Shown: positions 16,415 to 54,300 of the stretch, one piece after another
Layout of the letters: every line of letters begins with the position of its first letter
Position numbering within the stretch: the stretch's first letter is position 1
Assembly (NCBI GenBank): GCA_964016885.1
Contig: OZ024757.1
Coordinates: forward strand, 37,882,001-37,946,000
Length of the DNA: 64,000 nucleotides
DNA from: Eledone cirrhosa
Taxonomy: Eukaryota
Direction: 5' to 3'
Made by a program: the position numbers and the translations under genes
The notes under the pieces: model-generated
What the model was told of the DNA's origin: nothing
What the model saw: the letters and a program-made list of their open reading frames with translations, nothing else
Database searches by the model: none

Positions 16415-16661
16415 AATATATAAACAACCATCTGGTTGTTGTGGAACCAACCAACCAACCGGAAATTTATAAATTCCTAAATTTATAAATTTATTATAAT
16501 AAATTGAAGTGAAAGCAACTGGTGCGTGTGTTTCTTATTGACAACATGGCCCTCCCAAAGTATAACAATATCGGTTTCAACACACGTTTTCAGATAAAGA
16601 ATCTTACTAAACAAATTCAGAAACGAAATATATATATATATATACATATATATATGTATAC

Positions 16662-17727: not shown

Positions 17728-17760
<33 letters not shown>

Positions 17761-17943
17761 ACGAAGGAAATGTGGTAAGGAACCAGGTGGACCATAACGC
17801 ACCAAAGTACTCAATACTTGAGGTAGTAGAGTGGGTAATAGGAACCAGTAAGACCCCGACAGTTGAGCTCAAGCCGTTTCGACGGCTAATTTTGAATTAG
17901 CCGTCGAAACGGCTTGAGCTCAGCTGTCGGGGTCTTACTGGTT

Positions 17944-17947
<4 letters not shown>
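17761..17947. mobile_element. Family F HHR cassette, fold-back centred on stem II
   Basis: Near-perfect palindrome 17838-17947 containing GAA-acggc ttgagctca gctgt-C-ggggtc. Flanked by TA on both sides. Confidence 0.85.
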
Positions 17948-17999
<52 letters not shown>

Positions 18000-23354: not shown

Positions 23355-23438
23355 TATAACATCTCTGTCTGACGATCGATCCAGACGTATATTATTATCG
23401 TCTGTGATCCAGAAACCTTTCGTAATGGAGTAGTTATA
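23355..23438 (+). ncRNA. Type I hammerhead ribozyme, family D
   Basis: ctctgt-CTGACGA-tc gatc cagacg...cgtctg t gatc ca-GAA-ac ctttc gt-A-atggag. Outer pairing tataac/gttata. Confidence 0.75.
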
Positions 23439-33326: not shown

Positions 33327-33465
33327 GTATATATATATGGATATTTATATTTTTATACACGTATATATATATATATATCTATATATAATGTCGTAACGGC
33401 CGCAGCTCATCCATCGGGATCCTGACTCTTTCCACACAAACATACACACACACAGACACACACAT

Positions 33466-34776: not shown

Positions 34777-34962
34777 TTGCTTCTACTTTTGGCACAAGGC
34801 CAGGTATTACCTCAGTGTATTACTGGTACTTTATTTTATCGCCCCCGTAAGGATGAACGGCAAAGTTAACCTCGTCGGGATTTGAACTCAGGATGGCAAG
34901 GGCCGTAACTCAATGCGTCAAAGCATGGCGTCCGACCCTCTACCGATACTGCCAATCCACCG
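34777..34962 (-). mobile_element. Nin/Deu-core tRNA SINE
   Basis: Same family as 23107-23291. Confidence 0.85.
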
Positions 34963-35059
34963 ATAATGATTCTATTTATAGTTATGTATATACTATATGT
35001 ATATACTATATATATATACTATATCTATATATATTTATATGTATATATATATGTATGTG

Positions 35060-35123: not shown

Positions 35124-35160
<37 letters not shown>

Positions 35161-35161
<1 letters not shown>

Positions 35162-35634
35162 ACAAAGGAATTGTGGTAAGGAACCAGATGGACCATTACG
35201 CATCAGAGTACTCAATACTTAGGGTAGAAGAGTGGGAAATAGGAAAAAAGTATGACGCCGACGGCAGAGCTCAAGCTGTTTCGACGGCTATTTATGGACT
35301 AATTTAGAATTTTTAGCCTGGTGAATAAATAGCCGAACTTGTCAAGGGGGTACTTCCTTATATGGGAAGATTGTAGTTGTCAAGAGGATTGGTTAAAATT
35401 TGTTGTAAACACAAATAAGTCTATCATGGCATTTGGTGATAGACTGATGATAGACTTATTTGTGTTTACAACAAATTTTAACCAATCCTCTTGACAACTA
35501 CAATCTTCCCATATAAGGAAGTACCCCCTTGACAAGTTCGGCTATTTATTCACCAGGCTAAAAATTTTAATTTAATCCAGAAATAGCCGTCGAAAGGGCT
35601 TGAGCTCTGCCGTCGGGGACATACTTTTTCCTAT
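35161..35634. mobile_element. Longest family F cassette: palindrome of about 400 bp with an HHR on each strand
   Basis: Arms 35239-35428 and 35447-35634. Flanked by TA. Confidence 0.9.
35524..35618 (+). ncRNA. Hammerhead family F with U3-A8 core variant
   Basis: cccc-TTGACAA-gtt cggctattt...aaatagccg tc-GAA-agggc ttgagctct gccgt-C-gggg. Mirror copy at about 35256-35350 on the minus strand. Confidence 0.7.
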
Positions 35635-43782: not shown

Positions 43783-43817
<35 letters not shown>

Positions 43818-43818
43818 C

Positions 43819-44011
43819 AGGAAAAGAGTCGGGACCCCGACGGCTGAGCTCAAGCCGTTTCGACGGCTAATTCAGTCCAGAATTAGCCGTCGAAACGGTT
43901 TGAGCTCAGCCGTCGGGGTCTTACTTGTTCCTATTACCCACTTTACTACCCTAAGTATTGAGTACTTTGGTGCGTTATGGTCCACCTGGTTCCTTACCAC
44001 ATTTCCTTCGT

Positions 44012-44012
<1 letters not shown>
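43819..44012. mobile_element. Family F cassette, fold-back at stem II
   Basis: Palindrome about 43832-43920. The 3' end catttccttcgtt abuts (TA)n. Confidence 0.85.
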
Positions 44013-44069
<57 letters not shown>

Positions 44070-44467: not shown

Positions 44468-44480
44468 CACATATATATAT

Positions 44481-44654
44481 AACGAGGGAAGTGTGGTAAG
44501 GAACCAGGTGGACCATAAAGCACCAGAGTACTCGATACTTTAGGTAGTAGAGTGAGTCATAGGAAAAGAGTCAGGAGCCCGACGGACTCAGAATCCTGAA
44601 ATAGTCGTCGAAACGGCTTGAGCTCTGCCGTCGGAGTCCTGAACCCATTCCTAT
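44481..44654. mobile_element. Family F cassette, fold-back
   Basis: Homologous to 17761-17947. Confidence 0.8.
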
Positions 44655-44811
44655 ATATATATGTGTGTGTGTGTATGTGTGTGTGCCTTTCTACGTTATG
44701 AATGATGGAACGTAGAAAAAAGAAAGCCTGGTATACACTATTTTAGTATATTATATATATATGTATATATATGTATATACGTATATATATATGTATGTAT
44801 GTATATATATG

Positions 44812-53956: not shown

Positions 53957-54300
53957 TAATATTAATTCAAAATATTAACAAAATAGATTTTCTTGTGATC
54001 AATTATATTTTATTATACATATTTCAGAGTACTGAGTTAACTTCAACAGTACGTCCTCATCAGATAAAATAAGATGATGCTTGACATATCCTGACATAGT
54101 AGATGGTTAAGATTCAGTCATGGTAGTGAGTAATATATGACAAAACTCAATATGTATCTACCTTAATATTGAAAACATGAAAATAACATGCATCATCTTA
54201 TTTTATCTGATGGGGACGTACTGTAGTACCTCTGAAATATGTATAATAAAATATACTTGATCACAAGAATATATATTTTGTTAATATTTTGAATTAATAT
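53957..54300. mobile_element. Family H HHR cassette, inverted duplication
   Basis: Arms about 53957-54080 and 54190-54300. Confidence 0.85.
54008..54069 (-). ncRNA. Minimal hammerhead ribozyme, family H
   Basis: Minus strand: ttttat-CTGATGA-gga c gtactg...cagtac tct-GAA-at atgt at-A-ataaaa. The plus-strand mirror at 54201-54251 has an A9G change. Confidence 0.85.

Follow-up and report, generated by a model that had tools for sequence, protein, structure and literature searches.

Among the closest described systems are the Cercyon elements of Schistosoma mansoni, Penelope-like elements (PLEs) that carry a type I hammerhead in which U3-A8 replaces the C3-G8 core pair. A dedicated descriptor gave about 1,300 Schistosoma matches, mostly single, truncated copies, in which stem II of the hammerhead is short, stem III is all but absent and A9 is separated from G10.1 by an extra nucleotide (PMC4209133). 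The same source reports opposite-strand pairs for minimal PLE motifs and low in vitro cleavage for the minimal PLE hammerheads tested (PMC4209133). Several natural U3-A8 hammerheads, active in vitro according to earlier work cited in PMC3088659, share this core change, with other peripheral structure and with no PLE tie stated in the available text of that source. Insertions of PLEs show 5' truncation, inverted copies and a one-sided tail as described in PMC8557442, the supplement of which places hammerheads near the 3' end of (TA)n-targeting PLEs; how the inverted repeats form and what the hammerheads do are both treated there as open questions. Cleavage as a dimer through a palindromic loop III is summarised in PMC6765202, and the accessible text of PMC13282606 does not mention hammerheads.

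We analysed a 64,000-nucleotide stretch of Eledone cirrhosa DNA, called the window throughout, in which a palindrome at 35161-35634 carries the heptamer TTGACAA in both arms, at 35529-35535 (+) and 35345-35339 (-). This locus is probably a decayed palindromic insertion from the 3' end of a high-copy, (TA)n-targeting PLE, with a type I hammerhead that combines U3-A8, a two-helix stem II and a 5-bp stem III. The evidence on the core, on where insertions of the family break off and on the identity of the element is considered in turn below.

The palindromic insertion and its hammerhead motifs

The long arm (35161-35438, minus strand) is the 5'-truncated 3' end of an element and runs from roughly 90 nt before the core through the hammerhead into a 3' tail of about 80 nt, which ends in (TA)n (35161-35238) and is present on this arm only. 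It is followed by a 19-nt spacer (35428-35446) and by the short arm (35447-35634, plus strand), an inverted copy without the tail that stops where stem I ends, in (TA)n. All three frames of the roughly 90 nt upstream of the core contain stops at this locus, and no RT or GIY-YIG frame of the family was detected in it. The spacer holds a fold-back scar: eight nucleotides at 35437-35444 are complementary to 35419-35426 and are repeated at 35448-35455, and 35437-35455 shows the pattern that fold-back copying would be expected to leave. The two arms are 95% alike, with 120 central nucleotides, core included, identical and nine differences in the outer 69 columns (Fisher p = 8e-5). Because of this identity and the scar, the two core-bearing arms count as one piece of evidence, as the preliminary description had said when it called them not independent. 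The palindrome centre (35308-35427 and 35447-35566) shows neither arm-to-arm differences nor, among the read differences listed, any majority difference; in the outer parts, each arm has about 6% private changes. The mutation-free centre could result from polishing of the assembly, from a composite insertion or from a recent conversion with a young copy as the donor.

Hammerhead positions are numbered here by the established consensus. In the plus-arm copy (35524-35618), a C-run (35524-35528) forms the 5' strand of stem I beside the core and pairs with GGGG at 35615-35618, and stem I extends outward with bulges (about 35516-35523 with 35622-35631, plus strand). The core U3 U4 G5 A6 N7 A8 A9 occupies 35529-35535; stem II takes up the next 56 nt (35536-35591); and 35592-35614 contains GAAA (35592-35595), stem III with a 9-nt loop that holds a 6-nt palindrome, and GUC (35612-35614). 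By the hammerhead numbering, cleavage is predicted between 35614 and 35615. The minus-arm copy (35256-35350) has its core U3-A9 at 35345-35339, GAAA at 35282-35279 and C17 at 35260. A hammerhead-type motif at 35524-35618, as first proposed, is thus confirmed, with core, G10.1, stem II, C11.1, GAAA, GUC and GGGG all in place, and its core is of type I, with a Watson-Crick 3-8 pair (U3-A8), GAAA and GUC as the NUH site.

The three-stem layout with an open stem I is found in the family majority and in the sister copies, and each arm here has one or two broken pairs: G15.2.G16.2 in stem III of the plus arm, and an A.C mismatch in stem III and a C.C mismatch in stem I of the minus arm. The broken pairs in both arms make it probable that this copy is inactive, as does the base pairing expected between the two arms of any read-through transcript. 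The minimum-energy fold of either arm is not the hammerhead, and the core-open folds lie 2.5 and 3.7 kcal/mol higher. Stem III had been given as 5 bp in sister copies, and 42 of 45 cells are indeed paired over nine aligned arms (two from this locus and seven sister arms, with the two shortest sister arms left out); no two-sided, covarying change was seen over these nine arms. The heptamer TTGACAA recurs 38 nt upstream in each arm, at 35383 (-) and 35491 (+), and 97 reads with a single start skip exactly the 38 nt between both occurrences (35347-35386).

Stem II begins with G10.1-C11.1 (35536/35591) and a UU/U internal loop, followed by the 9-bp stem IIa (35539-35547/35581-35589), which encloses 33 nt, an asymmetric internal loop and stem IIb (35556-35562/35571-35577) with an 8-nt apical loop. 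Pair walks give 9 consecutive stem II pairs in the plus arm and 11 in the minus arm. The large stem II insertion of the preliminary description, 9 bp around 33 nt, therefore stands as to its size but not as an open loop, since the region holds a second helix. In the minus arm this helix reaches -14.8 kcal/mol (z -5.5) and is matched by none of 200 shuffles; in the plus arm it is weak (z -2.1; 6 of 200 shuffles). A pseudoknot between stem II and the tail finds no statistical support: the 6-bp match that could join the tail to the region of the internal loop is equalled in 28-32 of 500 shuffles for the sister copies and in 135 of 500 for this copy.

The heptamer alone occurs 17 times in the window, and a 17-nt core pattern with up to three mismatches matches twice, both times at this locus, against 0.01 expected. 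A loose type I descriptor with this core gave 0.13 matches per 35.4 kb of shuffled sequence, with 12 of 100 shuffles positive; when stem II of at least 9 bp was required, a condition set after the motif was known, the descriptor returned the two arms only and none of 400 controls. The first strict descriptor overlooked the locus because its stem III pairs are broken. TTGACAA was also considered as a bacterial -35 box and dismissed, the context being a eukaryotic repeat. Searches of the CUGANGA type had been predicted to miss this family, and Rfam did: at the gathering score it reported nothing at this locus, and at E up to 10 it gave 14 matches, none of them a hammerhead, from hairpin-type models of which the strong ones lie across the palindrome centre. 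This miss weighs little, because Rfam also missed six canonical-core candidates elsewhere in the window.

The preliminary description counted six loci of the family. Searches with nhmmer confirmed the six loci, but these are not six cores, as the core is present at 35161-35634 only. The five sister loci, with nine arms, none of which has the core, are a diverged palindrome (3073-3190), a palindrome with a tail (17755-17954), a single degraded arm (33389-33445, plus strand; nhmmer E 7.7e-06), another palindrome with a tail (43817-44013) and a locus of two inverted arms plus a tail (44480-44655). Because all sister arms are coreless, U3-A8 is represented within the window by one locus. Two inverted arms are found at five of the six loci and a full tail at four, each time on one arm, and a TA-rich microsatellite lies on at least one side of all six. 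Within 43817-43934 the 3' strand of stem I is very unlike between the two arms, which would fit separate templates, whereas the arms at 17838-17948 have a private change in common.

Several other features of the window deserve mention. A stop-to-stop frame at 15545-16144, which belongs to another family, has Cys motifs and a weak GIY-YIG match (Pfam E 0.004, below the curated cut-off); in a homolog search with part of this frame, none of 127 candidates passed. About 230 nt after this fragment lies a canonical minimal PLE hammerhead (16376-16422, plus strand), and the same hammerhead recurs at 2684 (-), near an inverted partial copy at about 2748. Hammerhead-like motifs with a CTGA core, a long stem II and a TA-palindromic stem III are located at 7627 (+), 54063 (-), 54207 (+) and 54411 (-). 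Those at 54063 and 54207 are paired in inverted orientation, and in the latter position 9 is G. A canonical-core candidate with a long stem II region at 23369-23424 (+) was found by the first descriptor only. There is a 200-N assembly gap at 8696-8895 and a dispersed repeat at 34780-34990, which may resemble an abundant octopus SINE-like sequence, and the genome context of the window is animal-like and TA-rich.

The 3/8 pair across the family

Four of 13 listed sequencing runs (X1, X4, X6 and X11) were aligned to 35160-35447 at 80% likeness, with differences counted from 4%; what follows draws on the 40 differences listed out of 94. The core is crossed by about 600-700 raw X11 reads, and depth does not dip there. 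N7 varies widely: of 616 X11 reads, 196 have A and 107 have G, C being common too, and in X1 A makes up 41% and G 10% of depth. At positions 3 (35345) and 8 (35340), no change appears among the 40 of 94 differences. The X1 tally contains three T>C places, and because all three lie elsewhere (35203, 35277 and 35394), G8 must be below 4% in X1, provided that places are counted at 4% or more, which is consistent with the T>A, A>C and G>T counts of that run. Both T>C places of X6 are also at positions other than 8. One T>C and ten A>G places in X11, and four A>G places in X1, have no assigned position.

In X4, a contig from another organism (record 14, organism B), which covers 35258-35393 without a gap at depth 23.3, differs at three positions, and 35277, 35294 and 35303 account for all of them; its core is therefore that of this locus, and both stem III and stem IIb are paired in it. 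In X6, record 17 (organism C) has seven differences, six of which are placed outside the core. The family majority repairs the breaks of the minus arm, in stem III at 35277 (90%) and in stem I at 35257 (92%). At 35303 the majority allele (71% of X11 reads, more than 99% of X1 depth) also completes stem IIb, giving a helix of 7 bp capped by an 8-nt loop. The variation listed within stem II falls in the apical loop (35305, 35307, 35309 and 35311) and the internal loop (35323), and the sole stem IIb variant listed (35316) stems from five read starts.

Some minority states are worth noting. A changed A9 is seen in 105 of 615 X11 reads, but these derive from five starts, and the change makes up 0.2% of X1 depth. 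Another minority, 18 of 728 X11 reads plus a single X4 contig, lacks one nucleotide at 35344; this can be read as C3 beside a stem of four Cs, so that C3 could be a minority state, and G8 in the same copies would be direct evidence of 3/8 covariation in the family. The alleles of four of seven aligned sister arms at the equivalent of 35291, and of five of seven at that of 35266, have no counterpart among the differences listed, and clipping at 35245 affects 4,420 reads; a diverged subfamily is therefore under-sampled.

Together these data support U3/A8 as the state of most family copies alignable to this locus. The opposite possibility, which the preliminary description had itself raised, is that the family consensus is CTGACGA (CUGACGA in the RNA) and that this copy carries two decay mutations; these would then have been copied to both arms, and G8A could be CpG decay if N7 was C. 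A core at a single locus in the window, arms that are identical at the core and the other private damage of this copy could all be explained in this way. For the alignable copies, however, decay is refuted by the split at N7, the absence of a listed change at 3 or 8, the X1 tally that puts G8 below 4% and the organism B contig with the same core; moreover, about 600 X11 reads cross the core without a dip in depth, roughly half of the reads have A or G at N7 and hence no CpG, and no difference listed in the core stretch exceeds 50%. We give decay next to no credence. A founder that acquired U3-A8 and whose motif was then copied along without cleavage mattering has a small but real chance of being the explanation. 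PLE hammerheads cleave poorly in vitro (PMC4209133), Naiad PLEs are described as spreading without canonical hammerheads (PMC8557442), most insertions drop the core, stem III lacks two-sided covariation and a UU/U loop sits at the base of stem II, all of which speak for an idle motif. Yet a U.U at the base of stem II is also found in the axolotl retrozyme hammerhead (PMC7229834), the stem II variants listed lie mostly in the apical and internal loops (with one stem IIb variant, from five read starts), and at least one further organism carries an intact motif. N7 occurs in three common states, and no alternative at positions 3 and 8 is among the differences listed, which argues for several source elements in which the pair was kept. 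From this free N7 beside an unchanged 3/8 pair we infer that selection for activity may have maintained the core. U3-A8 as a compensatory variant, as first proposed, thus holds as the majority state of the alignable copies and has published counterparts, and for the same reason it is not new (PMC4209133, PMC3088659).

Truncation and fold-back in stem II

Most insertions end just past the 3' strand of stem IIa, without the core, at a truncation and fold-back hot spot at 35293-35300 (minus strand). Read depth drops 7.7-fold across 35290-35310 in X11, and from 35270-35279 to 35310-35319 it drops 10.6-fold in X1 and 6.9-fold in X4; although depth does not equal copy number and the X11 library is of the reduced-representation type, the three runs and the assembly agree. 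Beyond the drop, X11 depth is roughly flat up to 35438, upstream of which other copies go on (loose ends: 774 X11 reads, 25 X1 contigs, two from X4 and one from X6). Of the 12 joints between opposite strands in the reads, ten involve 35293-35300 at one end, and seven of nine sister arms, read by eye, begin at the equivalent of 35294-35300, with differing spacers.

A mechanism can be proposed for the life cycle of the source element, part of which would follow from known PLE biology. Its ribozyme would cut after GUC and so process tandem transcripts, either as a monomer or as a dimer through the palindromic loop III, and U3-A8 would restore the tertiary pair and keep the core active. Because copies extend about 100 nt past the cleavage site, we infer that insertions arise from templates that were uncut or had been re-ligated there. 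Reverse transcription would usually stop just past the stem IIa 3' strand and fold back, leaving coreless palindromes, and the present locus would be one of the minority that read through.

Whether stem II itself sets the stop and the fold-back, turning about 85-90% of insertions into coreless palindromes, is a tentative proposal that we regard as possible but doubtful. The enzyme would copy the stem IIa 3' strand, and the displaced 5' strand would re-pair and peel off the end of the new DNA. It is possible instead that the break point derives from short master copies or from RNA cut at the internal loop. A narrow literature search found no publication linking Penelope, hammerhead and truncation. 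If the proposal about stem II is right, it would tie ribozyme structure directly to the unexplained inverted-repeat insertions of PLEs and would amount to a built-in limit on the genomic spread of active ribozymes. A fixed break point in a defined RNA helix can be tested in vitro, making it a sharper lead than the core variant.

Element identity and relation to known hammerheads

Judged by its sequence features, the family likely belongs to the PLEs. Its copies are 5'-truncated, with an inverted copy joined at the 5' end, a one-sided tail and (TA)n flanks, and the hammerhead lies about 100 nt from the 3' end of the element, measured at the cleavage site. In X11, 759 reads enter (TA)n before 35245. 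The tail of about 80 nt at this locus is longer than the 30-40 bp published for PLEs (PMC8557442). No direct (pLTR) or head-to-tail tandem was seen among the six short loci, and no relatives of the family were found in metagenome contigs or in viral contigs. A looser pattern gave 24 loci, which we regard as chance matches because all have 46-74% GC, none of the 24 has a core upstream and there is no BLAST similarity beyond one 18-nt match (E 0.59).

The element might alternatively be non-autonomous and retrozyme-like, a short hammerhead repeat with a circular RNA that borrows PLE enzymes, and this has a small chance of being correct. The lack of an ORF in the roughly 90 nt upstream of the core, copies that run past the cleavage site, and a 5-bp stem III with a long bulged stem I, closer to monomeric type I hammerheads than to the minimal PLE ones, are what such an element would be expected to show. 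Metazoan retrozymes are, however, short tandem repeats (PMC7229834), and none of the six loci has a head-to-tail tandem; the copies, inverted and truncated at the 5' end, with a tail on one side and set in (TA)n, fit PLE insertions (PMC8557442), and the loose ends show at least 100-150 nt more upstream. There is a very slight chance that the element is a Naiad, a PLE with an N-terminal endonuclease, whose reported lack of hammerheads would then be in part an artefact of descriptors built on CUGANGA and short spacers. Naiads prefer (TA)n, and the descriptor of the published search was built on cuganga and spacers of 7-17 nt, or of 35-50 nt for half cores (PMC8557442); the motif of this family has UUGANAA and 56 nt. 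But Hydra and Neptune PLEs likewise target TA repeats or microsatellites (PMC8557442), and six short family motifs have no occurrence in the Naiad, Chlamys and Hydra consensus files of that source, two octopus Naiads included, a count from which line breaks could hide single motifs. With the family motifs absent from the published consensus files, identity as a Naiad is not supported, and a (TA)n-targeting PLE remains the reading we prefer.

Core variant U3-A8 is already published for PLEs, and each feature of the family has precedent. The Hydra-clade PLEs have (TA)n targets and a hammerhead near the 3' end, as this family does (PMC8557442), and PLE-X1_sMoe (PMC8557442, File S2) has a 9-bp stem II with a 34-nt loop, much like the stem II described here; the motifs listed alongside it have CTGA cores, and the Hydra ones have stems III with 1-3 nt loops, unlike those of the present family (PMC8557442). 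Metazoan type I retrozymes share the topology, but they form short head-to-tail tandems in place of inverted, truncated insertions, and the U.U at the base of stem II in the axolotl hammerhead invites comparison with the UU/U loop found here (PMC7229834). We found no published precedent for the combination of features in this family, though Lunse et al. may cover similar variants. Counts of hammerheads based on CUGANGA or Rfam miss whole families of this kind.

The motif is not a minimal PLE hammerhead, as it has a 5-bp stem III and G10.1 directly after A9. It differs from Cercyon in that stem III with its 9-nt loop, in a 56-nt, two-helix stem II, in the absence of an extra nucleotide and in the UU/U loop. 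This larger scaffold could cleave as a monomer and would then be easier to assay than the minimal PLE hammerheads. Alongside Cercyon, with which it shares the core change, the family described here is an independent animal case, present in high copy number, of U3-A8 as the majority state.
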